15,659 bases of DNA from Promethearchaeota archaeon (GCA_048938025.1 JBHLMP010000015.1:52070-67728), one strand, 5' to 3'; positions 1 to 14,683 are shown, counted from the first letter of the stretch. Numbers and translations are program-made. Notes: generated from the letters alone by a model not told the origin.

Positions 1-14
1 AGCCAAAGGGAGGA

Positions 15-1265
15 GTGCTTAATAGAATAAATTTAGATGGATTTAAAGTAATTCAAGAAAAATATACAAAAGATCGCTTGCTCTGCAAAAAACTTTTAGA
101 AGTTGAAGGTAGATGGAGATTAGATGTAAATTATGGACCTCAGTTTGAAACAGAACTAAGAACTGAAAGAGCAGGAAAAATTCTTGTTCAAACAGATGAA
201 ACAACTATGCTTGGGGGAGGTGGAACGGCTATTCACCCTATTTCCTTATGTATGGTCGGATTTGGAGGGTGTTTCACAGCTGCTTTTGCTAAGTGGGCAG
301 CAATGCAGAACATCGAATTAAACACATTAAAAATAAGAGCTAAAGCAAATATTGATTTATCTAGTAGTTTTGGAATTGATGATACTATTCCTATGATAGA
401 TAACTATCAATTAGATTTATTTATAGAAAGTGATGCAACTATGGATAAATTTCGTGAAATTCTAGAGTTAACTAAGCTAAGATGCTTTTGCTATTATTGC
501 GCAACAACCCCTATATTTCCTACTGTTCTACTACGTAAAGAATATTCTAATAATGAATTTAATACAATCCAGGTTCAAAATGAAGATCACATTGTAAATC
601 GAATTAATTTAAAGGGTTTTAATGAAATTCGAAAACTTTATTCTGAAAACCGTTCATTATGTAAAAAAACTTTAGAAATAGAAGGCGAATGGAAATTAGA
701 TGTTCAATATGGACCCCAATATCAAACAAAATTACAAACTGAAAGAGCAGGAGAAATCCTCCTTCAAACAGATGAAACTATTATTTTAGGTGGTGGTGGA
801 ACTTCATTTCACCCAGTTCATCTTTGTATGGCAGGATTTGCAGCTAATTTTTGTTCAGAATATGCTAAATGGGCTGCAATTGAAGGTGTTAAATTAGATA
901 ATTTAAGGATTATTGTAAAACAATATATAGATTTATCAACTGGTTTTGGTATTGAGCCTAATGTTCCAATGATAGATGATTATCAAGTCGAGTTAATTGT
1001 GGATAGTAATGCTAATATAGAAAAATTACTAGATATTTTAGAAATTATTAAGAAAAGAAGTTTTTGTTATAATTGTTTAGTTACACCTACAGTTCCACTT
1101 ATTACAATACATAAAGTAATTTCTGATAGTCAAGATAAATCATTTAAAGTAGTAAAGAAAGAGTTAATTCCTGAAACTAATATAATATCAATATCAAGAG
1201 AAAATAACCTACTATTAAGTTCTATTTTTAAGAAAAGAAAGGTAATGCAAATGAAGAAAATTTAA
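15..1265 (+). CDS. Tandem two-domain OsmC/Ohr-like protein (5' end may lie upstream of the window)
   Basis: Two homologous ~175-aa units with a 192-aa period (NRINLxGF...QTDETxxLGGGGT..HP..LCM.GF). Unit 1 has OsmC-type Cys positions (GGC86F, RC157F). The frame is open to the window edge (PKGG before the GTG), so the start is uncertain. Confidence 0.8.
   Translation: MLNRINLDGFKVIQEKYTKDRLLCKKLLEVEGRWRLDVNYGPQFETELRTERAGKILVQTDETTMLGGGGTAIHPISLCMVGFGGCFTAAFAKWAAMQNIELNTLKIRAKANIDLSSSFGIDDTIPMIDNYQLDLFIESDATMDKFREILELTKLRCFCYYCATTPIFPTVLLRKEYSNNEFNTIQVQNEDHIVNRINLKGFNEIRKLYSENRSLCKKTLEIEGEWKLDVQYGPQYQTKLQTERAGEILLQTDETIILGGGGTSFHPVHLCMAGFAANFCSEYAKWAAIEGVKLDNLRIIVKQYIDLSTGFGIEPNVPMIDDYQVELIVDSNANIEKLLDILEIIKKRSFCYNCLVTPTVPLITIHKVISDSQDKSFKVVKKELIPETNIISISRENNLLLSSIFKKRKVMQMKKI
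18..1115 (+). repeat. Intragenic tandem duplication (unit 1 ~18-539, unit 2 ~594-1115, 576-nt period)
   Basis: Also visible at DNA level, e.g. actgaaagagcagga and caaacagatgaaac occur in both units. Confidence 0.9.
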
Positions 1266-5440: not shown

Positions 5441-7594
5441 ATGGGAAAAAAAGAAAAAAAGAAGAAACCAGAACGCCGAATGGGCTGGGGCGAGGAAGAA
5501 TTTAAAGAAGAATTAGTTGCCGATGCATTAAAAAGGACTGATTTGGATGAAGGGCGTGTAGAATTAGTTGATAGAGATACTAGGACTCCCGTTATAGAAA
5601 CTTATGATAAAGACACAGGAGAAGTTGAAGGTTCAATCATCCTAAAAAATAAAAATCGAGAAGGGTTATTAGCACAAGTAAAGATAATTGAAGAAGTTGA
5701 TGTAAAGCAAGACCATTATGGAAAACTTGCCTCCATAGGTTTTGTTGGAAAACTAAATATCGAGAACCCTTCCACTACTGATCGAATTTGGGATATAGAC
5801 TTATCGCTTAAAAATATTGGAAGTACGAACTTAAAAACAAAAGATATTTCAATAAGAGAATTAAGCACAGATGCTCCTGATAATATTAACTCACGTGATT
5901 TTCAATTAACTGGAGATGTTAAAAATCTTTTATTAGTAAAAGAATTTATCAGTACATTGCCTAATGCCGATGATCTGTTAAATATTCACGATATTGAGAA
6001 TGAGCTTTTAAAATTAAAAGAAATAACAAAAAAACCCTCAAAAATGGCAAGCAAACCAAAAGTAGAGAAGGCTACCGAATATGAAGAAGAGGAAGAGGAG
6101 GAAGAAGAGGATGAAGGTGAAACATGGGAGGATGGAGGAATTTCTGCTGCATCTGGATTAGAAACTTATGGTATTTCCATTGATAAAGAAAATACGGTAA
6201 CATTTGCTATTGCTATTAGGAGCGAATTTGATAAACCAGTTTCTAATATTAAAGTTGTTAAAAATATTCCCGACGATTTTACTAATCCAGTAATTCGAGA
6301 TAGATCAGTAGGAAGAGCTGAAATTGAAGGTAAAAAAGTTATTTGGACAATCGATGTTTTACCCCCTGAAAGAACTGCATTGTTAAAATTTACATGTTCT
6401 ATTTTTGTAACTGATATTACTAAAAGAAAAACGGGAAATGTTGAGGTTACGTATCAAGCAGCTTCTTCCTTTGCCGAAGGTTTAGATATAGATAAATTCG
6501 ATGCCTATACACGTAATAAATTTTATGTTGATACAGTTGAAAGAGACGAAGAGCCAGGAGTATGGGATTGTAAGCTTGTTTTTGACAATTCTTCAGAATT
6601 TATAATACAACTTTTTAATGCAGATGTCTACTCTCCAGACGATAAAACCACTAAATTCGTAGATATTGATCCTGAAGATGTTCCTTTACTACCTGCTGGA
6701 GCTCAATGGCACTCAAAGAAATGGCAATATGAAAGTGATGATTATCCTTCTTTTAGAAAGAAACTAGAATTTAGAGTAATGCCTGATTTCCGAACAATAG
6801 TTAATGGCTCAACGGCAATATCTGATGTTATTCTAGAGATCGCTAGCATCACTGGTGAAATGAAATATGATAAAACTGAAACTCCAACTTATAAAACTCA
6901 AGACATTATCGCTACACTTAAGATGGCTAATAATGGTTCTGCTCCTCTAAATGAATTAACTATCGTACAGCAATATTTCGCCGATGAATATCAACCTCCT
7001 AAAGCTAGTGAAATAACAATGATATGGGACGGAGATGAAGTCGAGTTATCTCCTGCAGCTGTAAGTTTTGAAGCTAATGTATTTACTATCTCTCTAATGA
7101 ATTTAAAAGATAGTGTTACCGGGTTGTTTAAACCCGATTCTACTATTGAATTTGAATATCCCATCCATTGTGTCAATCCTGCAAAAGGTTCTACATTTGA
7201 ATCAGAAATATTCTACCGTGCTAATACCTTTCCAGTAAGCCAGGAGTTAGAATTCAAGCCTGAGGTTCCAATAATAGAAGCATTGCACATCAGAAGGAAG
7301 TTCCGTGTTGGAAAAGAAGTACAAGCTTTTGGAACTCTTGGAAATTACAGAATAACCTTAATTCTTGAAAACATTGGTGAATCACGGCTTTATAATCTTG
7401 TTTTGCTTGATAAAGTACCTGATAACTTCGAGTATGGAACCTATTCTATGACCCCAGAAATTACTGATGAAGTTGGAGCTGATACGTTAAAATGGGAAAT
7501 AGATACTTTAGAAGTTGGAGATAAATTAGAAATTACATATGAAATTACGGGTACTGGCGCATATAGCCCATCGGATGCTCAAATAGCTCTATAA
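5441..7594 (+). CDS. Cytoplasmic multi-beta-sandwich protein: mu-homology-like domain (AP mu/delta-COP type) plus additional Ig/DUF11-like domains
   Basis: No signal peptide or TM helix. MHD-like motifs in order: E84-x9-G94-x8-G103, FQLTGDVKNLLLV, IRSEF..NIKVVKNIP..VG..VIWTI..LP, VEVTY..EGLDIDKFD. C-terminal DUF11-like unit (ITLILENIG..LVLLDKVPDNF..LKWEIDTLEVGDKLEITYEI). AAGGA SD upstream. The CDS is certain; the function call is inference. Confidence 0.65.
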   Translation: MGKKEKKKKPERRMGWGEEEFKEELVADALKRTDLDEGRVELVDRDTRTPVIETYDKDTGEVEGSIILKNKNREGLLAQVKIIEEVDVKQDHYGKLASIGFVGKLNIENPSTTDRIWDIDLSLKNIGSTNLKTKDISIRELSTDAPDNINSRDFQLTGDVKNLLLVKEFISTLPNADDLLNIHDIENELLKLKEITKKPSKMASKPKVEKATEYEEEEEEEEEDEGETWEDGGISAASGLETYGISIDKENTVTFAIAIRSEFDKPVSNIKVVKNIPDDFTNPVIRDRSVGRAEIEGKKVIWTIDVLPPERTALLKFTCSIFVTDITKRKTGNVEVTYQAASSFAEGLDIDKFDAYTRNKFYVDTVERDEEPGVWDCKLVFDNSSEFIIQLFNADVYSPDDKTTKFVDIDPEDVPLLPAGAQWHSKKWQYESDDYPSFRKKLEFRVMPDFRTIVNGSTAISDVILEIASITGEMKYDKTETPTYKTQDIIATLKMANNGSAPLNELTIVQQYFADEYQPPKASEITMIWDGDEVELSPAAVSFEANVFTISLMNLKDSVTGLFKPDSTIEFEYPIHCVNPAKGSTFESEIFYRANTFPVSQELEFKPEVPIIEALHIRRKFRVGKEVQAFGTLGNYRITLILENIGESRLYNLVLLDKVPDNFEYGTYSMTPEITDEVGADTLKWEIDTLEVGDKLEITYEITGTGAYSPSDAQIAL
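6077..6133 (+). repeat. Low-complexity GAA/GAG tract encoding poly-Glu (EYEEEEEEEEEDEGETWED)
   Basis: Directly visible GAR codon run in frame with the 717-aa ORF. Confidence 0.85.
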
Positions 7595-7611
7595 AATTAA
7601 ATTAAATTTAA

Positions 7612-7634
7612 TTATTTTTTATTTTTTTATTTTT
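7612..7634 (+). terminator. Possible oligo-T terminator
   Basis: Successive T-runs (ttttttatttttttatttt) about 20 nt after stop 7594. Confidence 0.4.
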
Positions 7635-7747
7635 ATATTGACATAAGGGTTAAATAGATTTAGGAATAAATATTAAAAGATCATAGAAAATTTAATTATT
7701 TTAATTATTATTAAAAGATTCCAAATTTAAACGAATTTTCAGAAATC

Positions 7748-9412
7748 ATGATAAGGAAACGATATCAACTAAATTGGATGTTTGAGTGTCCTGAAGCAGT
7801 GCTAACGTGTTCTATTCTAAGATGTCATAATAATAATTATTTAGTATTTGGTGGACATGATAAGACATTATATCTTATGGACGAGAAAATGAATATTGTA
7901 GATGATAGAGCATTTGATGGTTGGTGTCGATGTAGTTATGCTATTGATTTAGATGGAGATGGATGTGATGAGATTTTAGTTGGAGCAGGAGATGGAACTT
8001 TCATGGTTTTAAAGTTAAACATCGAGAAACAGAAGTTAGTAGGGGTTATGCGATATAGATCTACAGGGAAGGTAAATTGTTGTATTGCTGGCGATTTTAA
8101 TAGAAATGGGAAAGCAGATTTAATATTTGGAGGCGAAGATAAGACTCTTAAAATTTTTGATAGTATAAATTATAAAGAACCAAAATTCGTATTCTATTAT
8201 GATTCTTGGGTAACAGCTTGTACTTTGGGATATTTACAATTACCTGATAATAAAATACCTATATATGGATTATTAGTTGGTACTAAAAATGGTTCAGTTC
8301 AATTAATTCAAATTCAAGAAGGTAACCCTGATATTATTTGGCAAAAAGATTTTCATTCCCAGATTAATGATATTCAAGTTGGAGATGTTACAAATGATGG
8401 ATTTAATGAAATTATATTGAGTACTGATGATTCTAACATTAAAGTCCTTAACAGTGAAGGTGAGCTCTTGAAAGAGATCCCAATCGAAGAAGGGCGTCCA
8501 CTTTCCTTATTAATTGAAGATATAGACGGTGATAATGCCAAGGAAATTATTGCTGGATGTGCTGATGGCTCCTTAAAAGTTTTTCACAATCCTTCCTTGA
8601 ATTCTAAAGAGATTGAGTTAAAATGGAAAACAAAGGTATCCACTTCTATTCAAGATATCTGTTATCTTATGAGTACGGAACAAAATGTAAAACATATAGT
8701 ATTTGGGGGATATGATAGATCTCTACGAAATCTTACAGATTTTGAATGGGGTCAAAAACCTGTTTTGGAAATTCCTCAACAAATTCAAATTCCAGAAGTG
8801 CAAATAAGCGAAGAGAAGAAGATTGAAGAAGAGGTTAAAATAGAAAAAGTACCCACCAATATAAGAGAATATATTTTTAAAATCTTAAAAGATGTAGGGT
8901 TTTTGCAGGATTTAATTAAGGAATTAATGAAGTTAGGATATACTCATAGTGAGATTCTCGAAGAATTTGAAATAATGAGAACCCAAAAAATTATTACTTA
9001 TGAAAAGGTAGTCTATCCTGTTTGGAGTTTGCCTGGAGAAGAAAAACCAGAAAAAGTAGAGGAAATCGAAATTCCAACAGAGGAACCAAAAGTTATTGTG
9101 AAACCTATGGTTATTGAAGAAGTTGCTAAATCCGATAAAGAAAGATTGGTTGATGCACTTGAGCTTTATCCAGAAGAATCTGAACAAGCTGTTCCAGCTG
9201 TTAAACCTACTTCCACTCAACCATTAAATAATGTTATTATTGATTATTTAAAACAAAATAAAATTGTTCCAACTAAAACTAAATTTGTGGAAGATATAAT
9301 ACTGAAAGGATTTAGCAAAGATATTGTTGAGAAAGAAATCGAATCATTGAAAGAACAAGGGATAATTAGCTATTCACGAGGAACACCACGTGGTTGGAGT
9401 TTAGCTAAATAA
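7748..9412 (+). CDS. Seven-blade WD40/FG-GAP-type beta-propeller protein with two C-terminal winged-helix-like repeats
   Basis: Seven blade motifs: GGHDKTLYL, GAGDGTFMV, GGEDKTLKI, GTKNGSVQL, STDDSNIKV, GCADGSLKV, GGYDRSLRN. Four DxDGDG-like loops. Glu/Pro linkers separate two ~60-aa repeats ending IIxY..xWSL. No signal peptide. Confidence 0.8.
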   Translation: MIRKRYQLNWMFECPEAVLTCSILRCHNNNYLVFGGHDKTLYLMDEKMNIVDDRAFDGWCRCSYAIDLDGDGCDEILVGAGDGTFMVLKLNIEKQKLVGVMRYRSTGKVNCCIAGDFNRNGKADLIFGGEDKTLKIFDSINYKEPKFVFYYDSWVTACTLGYLQLPDNKIPIYGLLVGTKNGSVQLIQIQEGNPDIIWQKDFHSQINDIQVGDVTNDGFNEIILSTDDSNIKVLNSEGELLKEIPIEEGRPLSLLIEDIDGDNAKEIIAGCADGSLKVFHNPSLNSKEIELKWKTKVSTSIQDICYLMSTEQNVKHIVFGGYDRSLRNLTDFEWGQKPVLEIPQQIQIPEVQISEEKKIEEEVKIEKVPTNIREYIFKILKDVGFLQDLIKELMKLGYTHSEILEEFEIMRTQKIITYEKVVYPVWSLPGEEKPEKVEEIEIPTEEPKVIVKPMVIEEVAKSDKERLVDALELYPEESEQAVPAVKPTSTQPLNNVIIDYLKQNKIVPTKTKFVEDIILKGFSKDIVEKEIESLKEQGIISYSRGTPRGWSLAK

Positions 9413-9442
9413 TAAAGTTTTGGAAATCTTAAAAAGGAAAAA

Positions 9443-9886
9443 TTATTCAAGAAATGCTTTTATCTCATCTAAAAAAGATTCGAATTGATTTAATTCTGTA
9501 AAATCGCTATTGTTATATCTTTGATTGAATAATTCTAAAATAGGTTCTGCAGTATCAAAAAACTTCTTTACTAATTTATCTGGATTCTTCTTTTTTTTGT
9601 CTATTAAGCCATACATAATAATTGGTTCCTTTAATCCACTATCGCTTGATTTTATATCTGAAATCTTGAAAATAAAAAGAATTGAACCAGATTCTAAATA
9701 TTCTAAGGACGTATTATTGAACGCGCTCTTGGCAAATGTATTTATTGCAGATATAAAAGCTCCTCTTAGATCCTTTGCAACACACTTTTCTTTTTGAGTA
9801 GGTATCTCTTTAACTATATAATTTATAAGCACAAAACCTCGAAATACTATTCCTAACTCATAGAGATATTCGCTTAAAGGTGCTAT
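9443..9886 (-). CDS. Stand-alone longin-like domain protein (~147 aa; proposed ATA start, track start GTG 9832)
   Basis: Frame is open upstream of 9832 to TAA 9913-9911 and adds APLSEYLYELGIVFRGF (first beta-strand). It continues with DLRGAFISAINTFAKSAF (helix 1), three strands and two C-terminal helices (LELFNQRY, NQFESFLDEI). Confidence 0.7.
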   Translation of the reverse strand: MAPLSEYLYELGIVFRGFVLINYIVKEIPTQKEKCVAKDLRGAFISAINTFAKSAFNNTSLEYLESGSILFIFKISDIKSSDSGLKEPIIMYGLIDKKKKNPDKLVKKFFDTAEPILELFNQRYNNSDFTELNQFESFLDEIKAFLE

Positions 9887-10044: not shown

Positions 10045-10731
10045 CTAAAATGAAAAAGAATTTCCTACACATATTCTTTGATATTGGTTAGGAAATTGTT
10101 CACGGATTGATTTTATATGTTGTGTACAATGACATGCTCCGATTAAATCAACCCCCTTTAAATAAGAAAACTTATTAAAACCATGAAAACCACCAAAAAT
10201 AGCTTTAATTTTACCTAATTTTTGTGCTTCTATAATAAATTTCTCTAACCCTGGATGAGCACAACCAACAGTTATTATAATTTCATTATTTTTAGTTCTT
10301 AAAAATAAAGCCTGTTCCTTTGTAGAATGCTGCCCAAATTGACCTGAGGAATATAGATTTTTTCCAATTATGGTTAATTCTGAAATACCATGAACCTTCG
10401 ATTCAGAAAATGCTTTTTTATATGGTGCTAAATTTGCTAAAGGGACATATATTTCAATTTTAGGGTTCAATTTATAGATTCCCTCTAAACCAGCAGCATG
10501 GTCGCCATGATTATGTGAGATTATAACTTTTTTAATGCTGGAGATATCAACCTTTAGCTTGTTAATATTATGAAGTAAAATCCTGCTATTTCCTCCTGTG
10601 TCAAAAAGTAAATAATTTTCCGTTGAAAAATTATAAATTAATGCTGAAAATCCAAATCCAGGTAAAAATCCTTCTTCTACACACTTATTATCGAATACAA
10701 TACTAATTTGAAAAGAATATTTTAAATTCAT
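10045..10731 (-). CDS. MBL-fold metallo-hydrolase, COG1237/DHPS-like family (228 aa)
   Basis: ISIVFDN, GFSALI, LLFDTGG, ISHNHGDH (HxHxDH), EQAL, GCAHPG, GGFH, CHCT. Start reassigned to ATG 10731 (MNLKY), 31 nt past the upstream gene's stop. Confidence 0.85.
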   Translation of the reverse strand: MNLKYSFQISIVFDNKCVEEGFLPGFGFSALIYNFSTENYLLFDTGGNSRILLHNINKLKVDISSIKKVIISHNHGDHAAGLEGIYKLNPKIEIYVPLANLAPYKKAFSESKVHGISELTIIGKNLYSSGQFGQHSTKEQALFLRTKNNEIIITVGCAHPGLEKFIIEAQKLGKIKAIFGGFHGFNKFSYLKGVDLIGACHCTQHIKSIREQFPNQYQRICVGNSFSF

Positions 10732-10762
10732 ATATTTTGAATAATGATTCTTTATTATAAAA

Positions 10763-11566
10763 TTACTGCTGTTTTTTAAGTAAAAAAATCGCATTATTAG
10801 GACATTTAGAGACACAAATACCACATCCAAAGCATCTAATGGAATTAAAATGCAATTTACCATCTTCCATAGTTCTTGCACCAAAATAACACCAATCGGA
10901 GCATTCCCCACAATTTGAACATTTTTTTGGATTGGTTTTAGCAACAAAATCGCTTTTGATCATCTGGGGAGATCCACTTGATAGGAATTTGTTTAAAACA
11001 ACACAACAGCAAGGACAACAATTACAAATTATATAATAAAATTGGGGATTCGGAAAATAAATTAATTGATGCACTAATCCTCGTTCATCACATTCTTTTA
11101 ATAGCTCCGTTACTCTCTTTTTTGATACTTTTTTTAAATTATAAGATTTATAAGGGATCTCATATAAAGATTTCCCAAAGCTAAGATGAATACAGGTATA
11201 AAGTGGATGATCACAATTAGGTTCTTCATATTTTCGTTGTACAGCTCTACAATAGCAATAACCTATACCACTTACATTTGAGCGTTTAATAATCTCCAAG
11301 ATTTCTTGACTGGGTAAAAATCTTGAATCTAAGTCAATATTTGTATTTAAAGGAACAACTTTTCCTCCCCATCGACCTTTTAAAAAATATTTATTAATGA
11401 TTCCCATTGAGTATATATTCAATTTGTTATCAATTCTACGCAATAACTCAAGGATATAAATTTCAAAAACTCCGAAAAGACTAGTTAAAATCTTACCTAA
11501 TGCACGAAATCTTTTAAGCATTTTATCTATAAGAGATTTAAATTTTCTAGCTGGTAACGCACTCAA
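10763..11566 (-). CDS. 4Fe-4S dicluster ferredoxin-domain protein with Cys-rich central domain
   Basis: CSNCGECSDWC and CFGCGICVSKCP ferredoxin motifs, plus CYCR..C..P..TC and ICNCCPCCC. Start is TTG 11566 or the downstream ATG (MLKRF). Confidence 0.85.
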   Translation of the reverse strand: MSALPARKFKSLIDKMLKRFRALGKILTSLFGVFEIYILELLRRIDNKLNIYSMGIINKYFLKGRWGGKVVPLNTNIDLDSRFLPSQEILEIIKRSNVSGIGYCYCRAVQRKYEEPNCDHPLYTCIHLSFGKSLYEIPYKSYNLKKVSKKRVTELLKECDERGLVHQLIYFPNPQFYYIICNCCPCCCVVLNKFLSSGSPQMIKSDFVAKTNPKKCSNCGECSDWCYFGARTMEDGKLHFNSIRCFGCGICVSKCPNNAIFLLKKQQ

Positions 11567-11709: not shown

Positions 11710-12798
11710 TTAGAAAAAATGATCTTTTACTATTTTATTTATAGGTTTAAATACTCTTAAATCACCTTTCCAGTCTTTGAGAACACTTGCATAAATTTTT
11801 TCAATATTTTCAATCAAATTTTTTAATAATATTCGAATAGAGATTAAACTACCTTTAGATATTAGCGCTCCATAAAGATATTTACCAGGTTGAATAATAA
11901 TTAACTTAGCTGGTTGTTCAATTACTGAAAATTCTTCTTTATTACTAATTCCCTCTAACATCATTTTTAAGCTTGTAATTTTTCCTGAAATTGAAGATTC
12001 ATAAAGATTTTCGTCTTTTGTTACAAATGATTTCTGGAAAATAAGTAAACCAGACTTATGAATAATAAATAGACTATCTAAATTTTGCTGCCACTCGTAT
12101 TCTGAAAATGAAGGGGTTGATATGAAAAATAAAAACAAGAAAATAATAGCACAAGTTTGCACGATATCTCCAATCATACGCATAATTAATCCAAAATTTA
12201 TAATCATTAAATCAGTAGTTAAACCAAATCCTGCAATAAATAGAATTATTCCAAATAGTAAACTAAGATATTTAAATATAAATCTTCCAAGTACTGGGTT
12301 TCTTTTAAATATCGAATATAATTTAAATGAATAAAAAATAAAGAATACTACAAAAATAGGCCAAAAAGTAAAAGATATAAATTGTGTAAGATCAATATTG
12401 ATAATTAATATTAGGAAGAAGGCGATTATATTAAGTGAAAAAATGACTGTAAAAAAATATTTTATTATGAAAATTTTATAGCTTTCAATAATATAGATAA
12501 AAATTAGGACACTAGTCATTAATGAGATATAACCACAATTTAAAAAAATCAGGCGAACAATTGAAGTTTCAACATAATAATCGCTTATAATAAAAAACAT
12601 CCACATGAAACTAAATCCAAGAAATAACCATATATAAGCTTTTTCCTGAAGGCTTCTTAGTTCTTTCTTATACTTATTAACCCTAAACAAAAAGGTTAAT
12701 GCTAATTCAAGTGATAAAAATGTGATAAGCCATTCATATACTAATAATAGATCTGCTAATGAACCGCTTAATGGAAATTGGAAAATTGTAAAATTCAT
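11710..12798 (-). CDS. Seven-transmembrane protein fused to a C-terminal longin-like domain
   Basis: About 7 hydrophobic segments in aa ~17-227, then LDSLFIIHKSGLLIFQKSF..ISGKITSLKMMLEGI..LIIIQPGKYLYGALIS..WKGDLRVF, a longin-type beta2-alpha-beta3-alpha2 pattern. Confidence 0.75.
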   Translation of the reverse strand: MNFTIFQFPLSGSLADLLLVYEWLITFLSLELALTFLFRVNKYKKELRSLQEKAYIWLFLGFSFMWMFFIISDYYVETSIVRLIFLNCGYISLMTSVLIFIYIIESYKIFIIKYFFTVIFSLNIIAFFLILIINIDLTQFISFTFWPIFVVFFIFYSFKLYSIFKRNPVLGRFIFKYLSLLFGIILFIAGFGLTTDLMIINFGLIMRMIGDIVQTCAIIFLFLFFISTPSFSEYEWQQNLDSLFIIHKSGLLIFQKSFVTKDENLYESSISGKITSLKMMLEGISNKEEFSVIEQPAKLIIIQPGKYLYGALISKGSLISIRILLKNLIENIEKIYASVLKDWKGDLRVFKPINKIVKDHFF

Positions 12799-12813: not shown

Positions 12814-13962
12814 TTAATTCAATTTTAATATCTTAACTATATCATTATTAAAATCTTCAAATATTTGTGGATATTCTCCTTCAAGATTTTCTAACTCTAT
12901 CAATATATTCTTATAAATATCGTTAAATTTATTCTTTACAGTATTTAAAAAATATCTCATACTGACCATTTCTTTTTTAACTAAAATACAAAAAATTAGA
13001 AAACTCATATTCTCTCCTCCATAGTCTAATAAGATTAAATTTTCTCCTTGTTGAACTTTTTCAATTTTAGATTCTTTTGATTTAGTGATAACTGAAATTA
13101 TACTTTCCATTCCAACGATCCCCCCTGGAAAGATTATATTATATGCTTGCAATGTATTTGAATCTTCCTTTATCTTTCTTTCATTGTTCCCTTTCCTTGA
13201 GAAATTATAATAATAAAGAATTTCTAAACGCCTACTATCAATTATGAATAACTTTACTAAGTTATCTTGCCAATTAAATTCCAAAAAAATTGGAAAATTA
13301 TAAATCGCATAGAATACAATCATTTGACCCAGAATCATTAAAGGATTATAAATTAAAGCTACAATTTGTTGTTGCATAGGGTTAAATAAATATGGATTTT
13401 TTTCTGCTCCAATTACAACCATCATGATAATCAAGATTTCTCCAAAAAATAATATTAATATTCTTCTCTTAACATTTCCAGCGGATTTTTGAATTAGTTT
13501 AATGTGAAAATATACCATAAAAATACTCCCTAAAAAAAGTGATATTATTACAAATACACCGTCTAGAATTATATTATCTATTATTAAAATGAGAAGTGAT
13601 AAGAAAAAGGTGATTATAGAGACTATTTTTGAGAAGTTTGTATTAATTAATTTATTGAAAGATTTTTGAGAAACAATCATTAAAAATGAAAAAGCACCAA
13701 AAAAGATTAGTATGTGTGATAAATTAAGTAGAAAATCATTTATTAATGAATTATTTATATAATAACTATTAATAGTACGAATTCCTATTCCAGTAAAACC
13801 AAAAAAATATAATAGTCCAAATGCTAATAAAAATTTATTTATCCCTAATTTTTCATCTTTTATTTGAAAGTACCTATAAAAGAAATACACACTTATTTGA
13901 AAAGAAAGAAGTAAAACTATAAAAACAAAGGGATAATGAAATGCTCTCAATAATTTCTCCAT
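12814..13962 (-). CDS. Seven-transmembrane protein fused to a C-terminal longin-like domain (paralog of the downstream gene)
   Basis: About 7 hydrophobic segments. Shared junction PIFLEFNWQDNLVKLFII vs PSFSEYEWQQNLDSLFII. Only 15 nt separate the two genes. Confidence 0.75.
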   Translation of the reverse strand: MEKLLRAFHYPFVFIVLLLSFQISVYFFYRYFQIKDEKLGINKFLLAFGLLYFFGFTGIGIRTINSYYINNSLINDFLLNLSHILIFFGAFSFLMIVSQKSFNKLINTNFSKIVSIITFFLSLLILIIDNIILDGVFVIISLFLGSIFMVYFHIKLIQKSAGNVKRRILILFFGEILIIMMVVIGAEKNPYLFNPMQQQIVALIYNPLMILGQMIVFYAIYNFPIFLEFNWQDNLVKLFIIDSRRLEILYYYNFSRKGNNERKIKEDSNTLQAYNIIFPGGIVGMESIISVITKSKESKIEKVQQGENLILLDYGGENMSFLIFCILVKKEMVSMRYFLNTVKNKFNDIYKNILIELENLEGEYPQIFEDFNNDIVKILKLN

Positions 13963-14146: not shown

Positions 14147-14683
14147 ATATCAATTGATTTAGCATTCAAAATAAGTGTTTTTGGCGATTCTGGAGTTGGT
14201 AAGACTTCATTAATTAATCGATTTATGACAAACAAATTTGATTTAGATGTTGGAAAGACTATGGGAGTAAATATTTCGACAAAAAATGTAGTTATTGAGA
14301 ATTTAAGAGTTGTACTTCAAATTTGGGACTTTTTAGGGGAGGAACGTTTTAGAAGCATTATTAAAACTTATGCTAGTGGAACCTTTGGAGGTATCTTTAT
14401 GTATGATATTACAAGTAAAAATAGTTTGATGAATTTAAATGAATGGATAGCCCTTTTTCATAATACATTTCCAAGTACCAAAAAAAAAATACCAATTATC
14501 TTAGTTGGAGGAAAATCTGATCTAAATAATGAAAGAGAAATAACAAAAGAAGATGCTTTATCTATATTAAGATTACATAATATGTTTACTTTTATTGAAT
14601 GTTCATCAAAAACAGGTGAAAATATTGAAGAAGTTTTTTTTTCTTTGACTAATAAAATAATGAAAATTAATGGATATATTTAA
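14147..14683 (+). CDS. Rab-like small GTPase (Ras superfamily), ~178 aa; proposed ATA start (the track start at 14225 omits the P-loop)
   Basis: In-frame upstream of 14225: SIDLAFKISVFGDSGVGKTSLINRF (G1). Then KTMGV (G2), LQIWDFLGEERFRSI (G3), FMYDIT, LVGGKSD (G4), ECSSKTG (G5). Confidence 0.9.
   Translation: MSIDLAFKISVFGDSGVGKTSLINRFMTNKFDLDVGKTMGVNISTKNVVIENLRVVLQIWDFLGEERFRSIIKTYASGTFGGIFMYDITSKNSLMNLNEWIALFHNTFPSTKKKIPIILVGGKSDLNNEREITKEDALSILRLHNMFTFIECSSKTGENIEEVFFSLTNKIMKINGYI

Follow-up and report, generated by a model that had tools for sequence, protein, structure and literature searches.

Introduction

The origin of vesicle coats and adaptors is an open question of eukaryogenesis. 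In present-day coats the mu-homology domain (MHD) is found in the mu chains of the adaptor complexes AP-1 to AP-4 and in delta-COP, both of which carry an N-terminal longin domain, and in the muniscins FCHo, SGIP1 and Syp1, among which FCHo and Syp1 carry an F-BAR domain. A second group of proteins relevant here is formed by BBS2, BBS7 and BBS9 of the BBSome, in which a propeller is followed by GAE, platform and helical domains, and by ITFG2 of KICSTOR. This paper concerns a 15,659-nucleotide stretch of DNA (hereafter "the window") from a Promethearchaeota archaeon (GCA_048938025.1, JBHLMP010000015.1:52070-67728), in which three adjacent genes encode an MHD protein, a seven-bladed propeller protein and a stand-alone longin. 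All three genes are present between positions 5441 and 9886 (Table 1). The first two of them make up a two-gene cassette in the Lokiarchaeial order; it has been kept through rearrangement and is present or lost as a unit.

Parts of such systems have been seen in Asgard archaea before. The accessible text of Eme et al. 2023 (PMC10307638) reports homologues of all AP and COPI domains, including the mu C-terminal domain, in these archaea, and MHD-domain proteins are in this sense known there already. The homologues are described in the same text as "sparsely distributed" and "not fused to each other". The accessible parts of two preprints list a BBS7/ITFG2 structural cluster among the catalogued Asgard-eukaryote families (10.64898/2026.10.28.762692) and describe many longin and roadblock families (Liu et al. 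2020). Scattered adaptor-like domains are thus known from Asgard archaea, but not which of them cooperate.

The MHD protein of the window shares with the MHDs of AP-1 to AP-4 mu, delta-COP and the muniscins the fold of the whole domain and a weak but exclusive sequence likeness. Unlike AP mu and delta-COP it lacks a longin domain, and unlike FCHo and Syp1 it lacks an F-BAR domain. It differs further from the eukaryotic MHDs in that about 70 residues, among them a poly-Glu run and the motif GETWEDGG, are inserted into the domain, and in that a pilin/cohesin-like immunoglobulin (Ig) domain and a DUF11 domain come after the MHD. The propeller is related to those of BBS2, BBS7, BBS9 and ITFG2 by its matches to PF23743, BBS2_Mid, Itfg2 and PDB sequences. 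However, the C-terminal half of the protein resembles, by eye, winged helices and not the domains that follow the propeller in BBS2, BBS7 and BBS9. The pairing with an MHD gene is, to our knowledge, a feature of neither the BBSome nor KICSTOR; no other BBSome or KICSTOR subunit turned up, and no search was aimed at them.

Linkage of the MHD and propeller genes

Gene coordinates were taken from a sample of 301 Asgard genomes (phylum level) and a sample of 91 genomes (order level). The window's own family is referred to as f1, the sister family as f2, and the genus that includes the window's genome as g1; individual genomes carry G numbers. Gene order at the relatives' loci (L numbers) was read by tblastn, and a query with a single protein gave 11 related loci.

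In f1 the propeller gene is situated directly downstream of the MHD gene, on the same strand, in 51 of 51 genomes having both genes on one contig. These comprise 21 genomes of g1, among them that of the window, 25 of g4, and G270, G168, G186, G183 and G279. The gap between the genes is about 130-700 nt in 50 of the 51 and 2.5 kb in G279. The same adjacency is found at L002-L007, L010 and L013. The f1 genomes missing from this count are those in which the locus falls at a contig end (G216, G104, G153/L059, G135) or in which the assembly is fragmented (G125, G291). L005 and L060 both denote positions 5000-17394 of a 17394-base contig, where the C-terminal DUF11 domain occurs in two additional copies between the MHD and propeller genes; these match residues 640-717 with 73-76% identity and widen the gap to about 2.5 kb.

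In f2 the two genes are no more than about 5.4 kb apart in 8 of 8 genomes with both on one contig. They are adjacent and convergent in G165, G234, G306 and G312, whereas the spacing is wider in G309 (convergent, about 0.9 kb), G213 (1.4 kb), G310 (same strand, 1.4 kb) and G307 (5.4 kb). The genes are on different contigs in G089, G094 and G282. The f2 orthologs are 32-40% identical to those of the window in the MHD core and 25-27% in the propeller, and the surrounding genes differ from those in f1.

Both the MHD ortholog and the propeller are missing from 11 genomes, namely 4 of 4 in g2, 4 of 4 in g3 and 3 of 5 in g6, whose completeness is 82-100%. Most of these genomes keep a distant MHD paralog (E 1e-25 to 1e-33), while two have no match at all.

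The MHD protein

The structure of the 717-residue protein was predicted with AlphaFold2 from an alignment of 66 members of the wider MHD family, which also gave the profile used in searching 177,635 distinct PDB sequences at E≤10. Fold searches were made with VIA-align, independently of Foldseek, against 48,161 PDB chains. The model has a predicted local distance difference test score (pLDDT) of 87.7 and a predicted template modelling score of 0.76, the pLDDT falling below 50 only at residues 8-14 and 202-237.

The best match of the model is AP-2 mu2, with a Z-score of 16.1 and 229 residues aligned at a root-mean-square deviation of 3.8 (model residues 73-464 onto chain residues 168-437). It is followed by a second mu2 chain (Z 15.8), mu4 (15.1), mu3A (14.9), bovine delta-COP (14.0), mu1 (14.0), SGIP1 (13.3), yeast delta-COP (12.4) and Syp1 (11.7). 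Throughout this range of Z 16.1-11.7, about 209-229 residues are aligned with root-mean-square deviations of 2.8-4.3. The model thus predicts the two-subdomain, all-beta fold of an MHD over the length of the whole domain, and indicates that the open reading frame (ORF) 5441-7594 encodes a genuine and complete MHD at residues ~73-464, interrupted at ~172-243. The identification of an MHD in the preliminary description of the window, which had been made from the sequence alone, is in agreement with this.

The profile search points the same way. All 20 matches at E≤10 are chains of adaptor complexes, the best being AP-3 mu (E 0.022), AP-2 mu (0.17), the delta-COP MHD (0.31) and gamma1-adaptin (0.42). 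The HMMER alignments consist of two separate matches. The first places residues ~76-105 on the first strands of the mu2 MHD; the second places the first sandwich past the acidic insert on the part of the mu2 and mu3A MHDs that is covered by Pfam positions 121-243. Because E84 and G103 (each in at least 90% of members) and N109 (invariant) are conserved in the first half of the domain, the whole MHD appears to be common to the 66 aligned members. A search with the single sequence against PDB was uninformative, and Foldseek with the whole 717-residue model returned generic multi-Ig proteins, with no MHD among ranks 1-50.

In Pfam, 62 of the 66 aligned members match DUF11 and 32 match PF00928 (Adap_comp_sub; best E 1.9e-10). 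The gathering threshold of PF00928 is 31.6 bits, and the relatives score 24.6-40.7 bits, some of them above it (P0012 34.5, P0260 40.7); the close orthologs score 24.6-35 bits over approximately positions 121-240 of the 259 of the profile.

Residues 465-618 of the model match SpaD (Z 13.9), BcpA (13.9), RrgB (13.6) and cohesins (10.7-11.6). The N-terminus is rich in Lys and Glu, and the protein has no hydrophobic segment by hydropathy. Residues 1-72 form a single helix in the model and match no Pfam family.

In mu2 the Asp that holds the Tyr of the YxxPhi motif is D176. In the HMMER alignment, read by eye, this position appears to fall on a Lys in the MHD protein, and recognition of the cargo motif therefore need not be kept.

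The family is widespread. Orthologs with 66-91% identity occur in many Lokiarchaeal metagenome-assembled genomes (MAGs). A search for representatives of the family gave 365 clusters at E≤0.001 and 93 at 1e-30, with a conserved core at residues 240-717. This core is matched at E≤1e-10 in 231 of the 301 sampled Asgard genomes, in contrast to the "sparsely distributed" homologues in the accessible text of Eme et al. 2023, to whose mu C-terminal-domain set the MHD protein very probably belongs.

The window's own genome has a second gene of the MHD family (C45:32131-34266, minus strand, L001), whose product of 711 residues is 23% identical over the core (residues 249-708); the ORFs beside it look unrelated. 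A third class of paralogs, with 44-48% identity and frames of 790-830 residues, occurs in some f1 genomes (L014, L015), and L009 (45% identity to the MHD protein) probably belongs to the same class; neither a propeller nor a longin is encoded near any of these three loci. Two family members from other metagenomes, P0366 and P0378, have short N-terminal HEAT repeats (HEAT_2, E 8.5e-15 and 2.5e-06) in front of the MHD/DUF11 core, and their sequences read as a solenoid-MHD fusion in some Asgard lineages.

The acidic insert

The region of low pLDDT at residues 202-237 lies within the MHD insert and is predicted to be disordered. The insert was compared in an alignment of 124 sequences, made up of the window's protein and 123 relatives of 650-760 residues. 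The GETWEDGG motif is 70-99% conserved in this alignment and the acidic run is also kept, while the rest of the insert varies in both length and sequence. Coat networks classically use acidic tryptophan motifs as ligands, and GETWEDGG looks like a candidate short linear interaction motif.

The propeller protein

The 554-residue protein matches the Pfam family Beta-prop_BBS7 (PF23743) with E 1.5e-21 and 77.4 bits, against a cut-off of 27. Further Pfam matches are to the lambda-carrageenase propeller, FG-GAP_3 (PF13517), BBS2_Mid (PF14783; 42.2 bits against a cut-off of 27), FG-GAP and Itfg2 (PF15907; 29.5 bits). Among PDB sequences ITFG2 is the best match (E 0.007), followed by BBS7 and BBS2. 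Seven evenly spaced blade repeats begin at residues 32, 76, 125, 175, 222, 267 and 317, and four of the blades have FG-GAP-like Asp/Asn loops. The repeat pattern was written down after inspection of the sequence, and hence shows periodicity without being an independent test. These results bear out the earlier call of a seven-bladed propeller. A search of the genome found this protein to be its sole BBS7-type propeller, and hydropathy shows no transmembrane segment in it.

The C-terminal ~200 residues resemble a pair of winged helices joined by a charged linker, judging from an alignment by eye and a weak Rrf2 match (E 0.058). Searches of Pfam and of PDB sequences with residues 350-554 gave nothing significant and no GAE, platform or helical domain, the matches being limited to weak ones to Rrf2 and MLLE.

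The longin

The longin gene is convergent with the propeller gene, their stops being 30 nt apart (9412 and 9443). The frame given by the ORF caller, 9443-9832, has a GTG start and encodes 129 residues. Homologs are mostly 148 residues long. Upstream of this frame, and in phase with it, the window has coding sequence for their conserved first strand, without an ATG, GTG or TTG codon. The preliminary start at 9886, an Ile codon, is plausible for this reason. Close relatives of the longin likewise have the shortened start in their annotation. Both the longin (9833-9886, minus strand) and the small GTPase further downstream (14159-14224, plus strand) have conserved N-terminal coding sequence ahead of the first ATG, GTG or TTG, which points to non-canonical starts, of the ATT/ATA type or another, in this lineage of low G+C content.

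The model of the longin has a pLDDT of 74 and the order of elements beta-beta-alpha-beta-beta-beta-alpha-alpha. It is predicted to have the longin fold (beta2-alpha-beta3-alpha2, with the C-terminal helices packed on the sheet). Longins top the fold search, as expected from the preliminary call of a stand-alone longin. The best match is the longin domain of a Lokiarchaeal Roadblock-Longin protein (8yqg; Z 11.2, 130 residues aligned), and the others include VAMP7 (10.7), synbindin (10.1), Sec22 (10.0), AP-3 sigma (9.8), TRAPP (9.8) and the N-terminus of mu2 (9.6). Longins align over residues 7-147, whereas roadblock proteins do so over residues 3-125 only. Because the matches lie within about 1.5 Z of each other, no longin subtype can be assigned; what is shared with VAMP7, Sec22, the TRAPP subunits synbindin and sedlin, the AP sigma chains and mu N-termini, and 8yqg (Z 11.2-9.6) is the general fold. 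The first beta-hairpin has a conserved Arg, with the consensus FRGF. The free longin matched no family in Pfam, and Foldseek with the model gave weak matches, none at E≤0.001. In searches of PDB sequences the single sequence was uninformative and the family profile gave nothing relevant.

Function of the cassette

We give an even chance to the reading in which the MHD protein and the propeller act as one functional two-protein unit. Since neither protein has transmembrane segments, both are taken to be cytosolic. The MHD and the Ig-like domains would form a ligand-binding or membrane-proximal platform, by analogy with the MHDs of AP, COPI and the muniscins, and the propeller-winged-helix protein would be the scaffold or effector partner of this platform. 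Contact between the two might be made via the GETWEDGG motif in the disordered insert. A prediction of a complex covered residues 1-470 of the MHD protein, residues 1-345 of the propeller (the scored partner) and the longin, each with its alignment; the Ig domains and the winged-helix half at the C-termini were left out so that the input remained below 1000 residues. Both runs scored 0.00, which counts neither for nor against binding.

A number of observations weigh against a functional unit, or against parts of it. All of its support is genomic, and the role given above to GETWEDGG is one that we purely infer. The window's MHD protein itself has no match to PF00928 even at E≤10, Pfam finding DUF11 only, and the PF00928 matches of its relatives cover profile positions ~98-243 of 259 only, on residues that also match DUF11. 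The related genomes are not independent of each other, so that the joint absence of the two genes might represent one to three events only. In f1 the upstream genes for DLD and glycerate kinase (glyK) are as syntenic as the pair, and adjacency alone is weak evidence there. In G138 (L058, C25:1-14597) the propeller is intact while the MHD gene is cut to a C-terminal remnant of 46 residues. Of 39 further MHD-family loci, 36 have neither a propeller nor a longin as neighbour, although some are on short contigs; these 36 are the 44-48% identical paralogs at L014 and L015 together with relatives of 23-30% identity from other Asgard families and f2.

The synteny of the upstream genes in f1 and the locus in G138 would fit an alternative in which there is no functional module but a gene order conserved in one archaeal order, each gene encoding an independent protein with a eukaryote-like domain. 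Distant members of the MHD family also have other neighbours, an example being a putative HerA/NurA/Mre11/Rad50-like run of genes. However, the f2 genes have stayed together despite a different orientation and a different neighbourhood, and in f1 the flanks are the same whether both genes are there or both are missing. We regard the lack of any module as unlikely. The locus in G138 looks like a recent disruption of the cassette. A 1925-residue ORF ends there about 350 nt upstream of the MHD remnant, and the locus contains two tandem copies of the longin.

A second alternative is a regulatory system of small GTPases in place of a coat, in which the propeller would resemble ITFG2, WDR41 or the BBS propellers, the longin would be a platform for GTPase-activating proteins (GAPs) or guanine nucleotide exchange factors, and the MHD protein would provide the anchor to membrane or cargo. 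Eukaryotic models for this are ITFG2 in KICSTOR, WDR41 in C9orf72-SMCR8-WDR41, and the BBS propellers that bind Arl6. The propeller's best PDB match is indeed ITFG2, with both Itfg2 and BBS7 among its Pfam families. The longin's fold also matches those of FLCN, Mon1-Ccz1, C9orf72-SMCR8, Lst4 and the C-terminal domains of Lokiarchaeal Rag proteins (Z 8.9-9.5), and a Ras-family GTPase is encoded 4.3 kb away. Some Asgard longins share an arginine finger and a GP motif with eukaryotic GAP longins according to the accessible text of PMC12290439 (2025), and the Arg conserved in the first hairpin of this longin may be compared with that finger. This system is nonetheless quite unlikely. FG-GAP-type blades are widespread, and the likeness to ITFG2 and the BBS proteins may be generic. 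The longin is not distributed together with the propeller, as described below. Near the cassette loci of relatives the only GTPase match is at L010; it is weak (23% identity), and just 5.4 kb of downstream sequence is available there.

The preliminary description had combined the MHD protein, the propeller and the free longin into a single proto-adaptor or coat-like complex. The longin and the MHD would be the halves of a split mu chain, and the complex would work with the nearby seven-transmembrane (7TM) longin proteins and a Rab-like GTPase. The three folds appear to be real, and the order of MHD gene, propeller gene and opposite-strand longin gene is kept at L002-L006, L010 and L013 and, by locus tag, in many further MAGs. 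The match of the longin model to the AP sigma and mu N-terminal longins (Z 9.8-9.6), within about 1.5 Z of the best, also speaks for this reading. Against it, all five of the cassette-less genomes that were examined contain the longin ortholog (E 1e-43 to 1e-62). At L053 and L055-L057 it is convergent directly after glyK, and at L054 it comes after DLD, with no remnants of the cassette. Because it is kept at the same locus in all five, the longin is part of the flank and not of the cassette. At L016, L017 and L020, the f2 loci that were examined, the pair has no longin nearby, and at L007, where the pair is present, none was found in the remaining 744 nt of the contig; and a longin profile has no match in 270 MHD-family proteins, so that no fused longin was found. 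Synteny holds for the MHD-propeller pair, in f1 as well as in f2, while the longin behaves independently.

The 7TM genes were found at none of the five relatives' loci with at least 8.7 kb of downstream sequence (L003-L006, L013), and for the GTPase there is the weak match at L010 mentioned above. No adaptin-type alpha-solenoid is encoded in the window or linked to the cassette. The window's genome does encode a HEAT protein at a contig end (C48:114776-115570, minus strand) that reaches 44.2 bits with Adaptin_N against a cut-off of 37, but it passes only when its matches are summed, and since the Adaptin_N model also matches in 4 of 14 control prokaryotes the match is unspecific. The best candidates in the genome for a sigma or zeta chain (PF01217) score 16.7 and 14.6 bits, below the cut-off of 22.5, and neither of them is the window's longin. 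We therefore hold the three-protein complex to be very improbable. The longin, like the 7TM proteins and the GTPase, appears to be a neighbour and not a dedicated subunit; and because the longin keeps its locus with or without the cassette, neither a split mu chain nor an AP-like tetramer is a likely description of the arrangement. At most it would be a pairing of MHD and propeller proteins such as could have served as a starting point for coat-like machines.

That the MHD and propeller proteins make up a surface or adhesion system is scarcely credible. Extracellular adhesins typically have FG-GAP propellers and Ig domains of the DUF11 or pilin-like type, DUF11 and FG-GAP are both among the Pfam matches, and multi-Ig surface proteins (PrgB, integrin legs, antigen I/II) are the top Foldseek matches of the 717-residue model, but the reading was rejected on the absence, by hydropathy, of a signal or anchor segment from both proteins, whose N-termini are highly charged, while the poly-Glu insert and the winged-helix-like domains would fit a cytosolic protein and the best rigid match is an MHD, an intracellular domain.

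Other features of the window

The window is the end of a 67.7-kb contig (C87:52070-67728). The assembly consists of 88 contigs with a total of 3.52 Mb, a G+C content of 29%, a completeness of 96.7% and a contamination of 5.1%. Close homologs of the window's proteins are labelled Promethearchaeota or Lokiarchaeota. At least one fifth of the sampled words of the window were found in 16 DNA runs from 11 studies, which are metagenomes of sediment, marine sediment, mangrove and seawater or have no habitat label.

Table 1. Position and extent of the features discussed, counted from the first nucleotide of the window
Feature	Position	Strand	Description
MHD protein gene	5441-7594	+	717 aa; charged N-terminal segment (1-72), MHD, two Ig-like domains
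Mu-homology domain	5657-6832	+	Residues ~73-464, split by insert; VIA-align and HMMER alignments
MHD insert	5954-6169	+	Residues ~172-243; helix, variable Lys/Pro/Ala spacer, poly-Glu run, GETWEDGG
GETWEDGG motif	6116-6139	+	Residues 226-233 of MHD protein
Ig-like domain, pilin/cohesin type	6833-7291	+	Residues ~465-617; fold matches
C-terminal DUF11 Ig-like domain	7298-7591	+	Residues ~620-717; PF01345 1.4e-09 at 631-703
Propeller protein gene	7748-9412	+	554 aa; 7-blade FG-GAP/BBS7/ITFG2-type propeller (residues ~1-340, nt 7748-8767)
Two putative winged-helix-like domains of propeller protein	Residues ~370-430 and 495-554	+	By eye from sequence pattern
Stand-alone longin-domain protein	9443-9886	-	~147 aa, non-canonical start; fold search
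Two paralogous membrane proteins	11710-12798, 12814-13962	-	~7 transmembrane segments each and C-terminal alpha/beta domain
Ras/Rab-type small GTPase	14159-14683	+	174 aa; non-canonical start, 5' end approximate

The hydrophobic segments of the two membrane proteins, about seven in each, lie within the first 226 residues and are followed by a C-terminal domain of 135-155 residues. The C-terminal domains of the two proteins are paralogs of each other (24% identity, E 5e-7). That they might be roadblock- or longin-like is a lead only. The nearest clusters to the domain in the Atlas are archaeal "Roadblock/LAMTOR2" clusters, some with Fuz_longin_1 (feature score 0.80), while comparison of the free-longin family with both domains by hhalign gave no similarity (probability <1%).

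When read from its first ATG, the GTPase ORF lacks a P-loop. The P-loop GDSGVGKT is encoded in frame upstream, and the extended protein has the full G domain, matching PF00071 over positions 1-161 of 162 with E 4e-42.

In the ORF at 3-1265 (plus strand, 420 residues) a unit of about 190 residues is duplicated in tandem, and both halves have a run of motifs in common. A metallo-beta-lactamase ORF and a Fer4 gene overlap by 185 nt (10045-10947 and 10763-11566, both on the minus strand). The true start of the metallo-beta-lactamase ORF is probably further downstream, because the alignment begins at ORF residue 47 or 78 in 5 of 6 matches to relatives.

One metatranscriptome, X20 (share 0.05), contained four short contigs on the MHD and longin genes (5522-6792 and 9575-9769) and was the sole RNA set with anything from the window; one of the contigs has 2 differences in 229 nt. 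None of them covers the propeller gene, and contigs from an RNA library do not prove transcription. The label of this set, leaf litter, is an odd habitat for the lineage.

Implications

Literature searches found no description of the MHD-propeller pair, and no Asgard paper with "mu homology domain" or with MHD and adaptor together. The accessible text of Eme et al. 2023 (PMC10307638) does not mention confirmation of the fold, the Ig/DUF11 architecture or a propeller partner. Its supplementary tables may list more, and these and the tables of Liu 2021 may contain both families. The pairing, the domain architecture and the GETWEDGG motif were not found in these searches.

The present analysis contributes confirmation, at the level of the predicted fold, of a complete MHD in a widespread Asgard family. 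It also provides a concrete conserved gene pair, consisting of an MHD protein and a BBS/ITFG2-like propeller, together with a candidate linear motif. A correction follows for the longin: adjacency alone does not justify counting this neighbouring protein as a subunit.

It is conceivable, although distinctly improbable, that the cassette is the surviving archaeal precursor of the link between adaptor and cage, in which the MHD protein, bound to membrane or cargo, would recruit the propeller via its acidic Trp motif. If this were true, coat assembly driven by linear motifs would predate eukaryotes. Should the MHD protein and the propeller bind each other, they would be, within the literature searched, the first defined archaeal two-protein unit built from parts of coats and adaptors.

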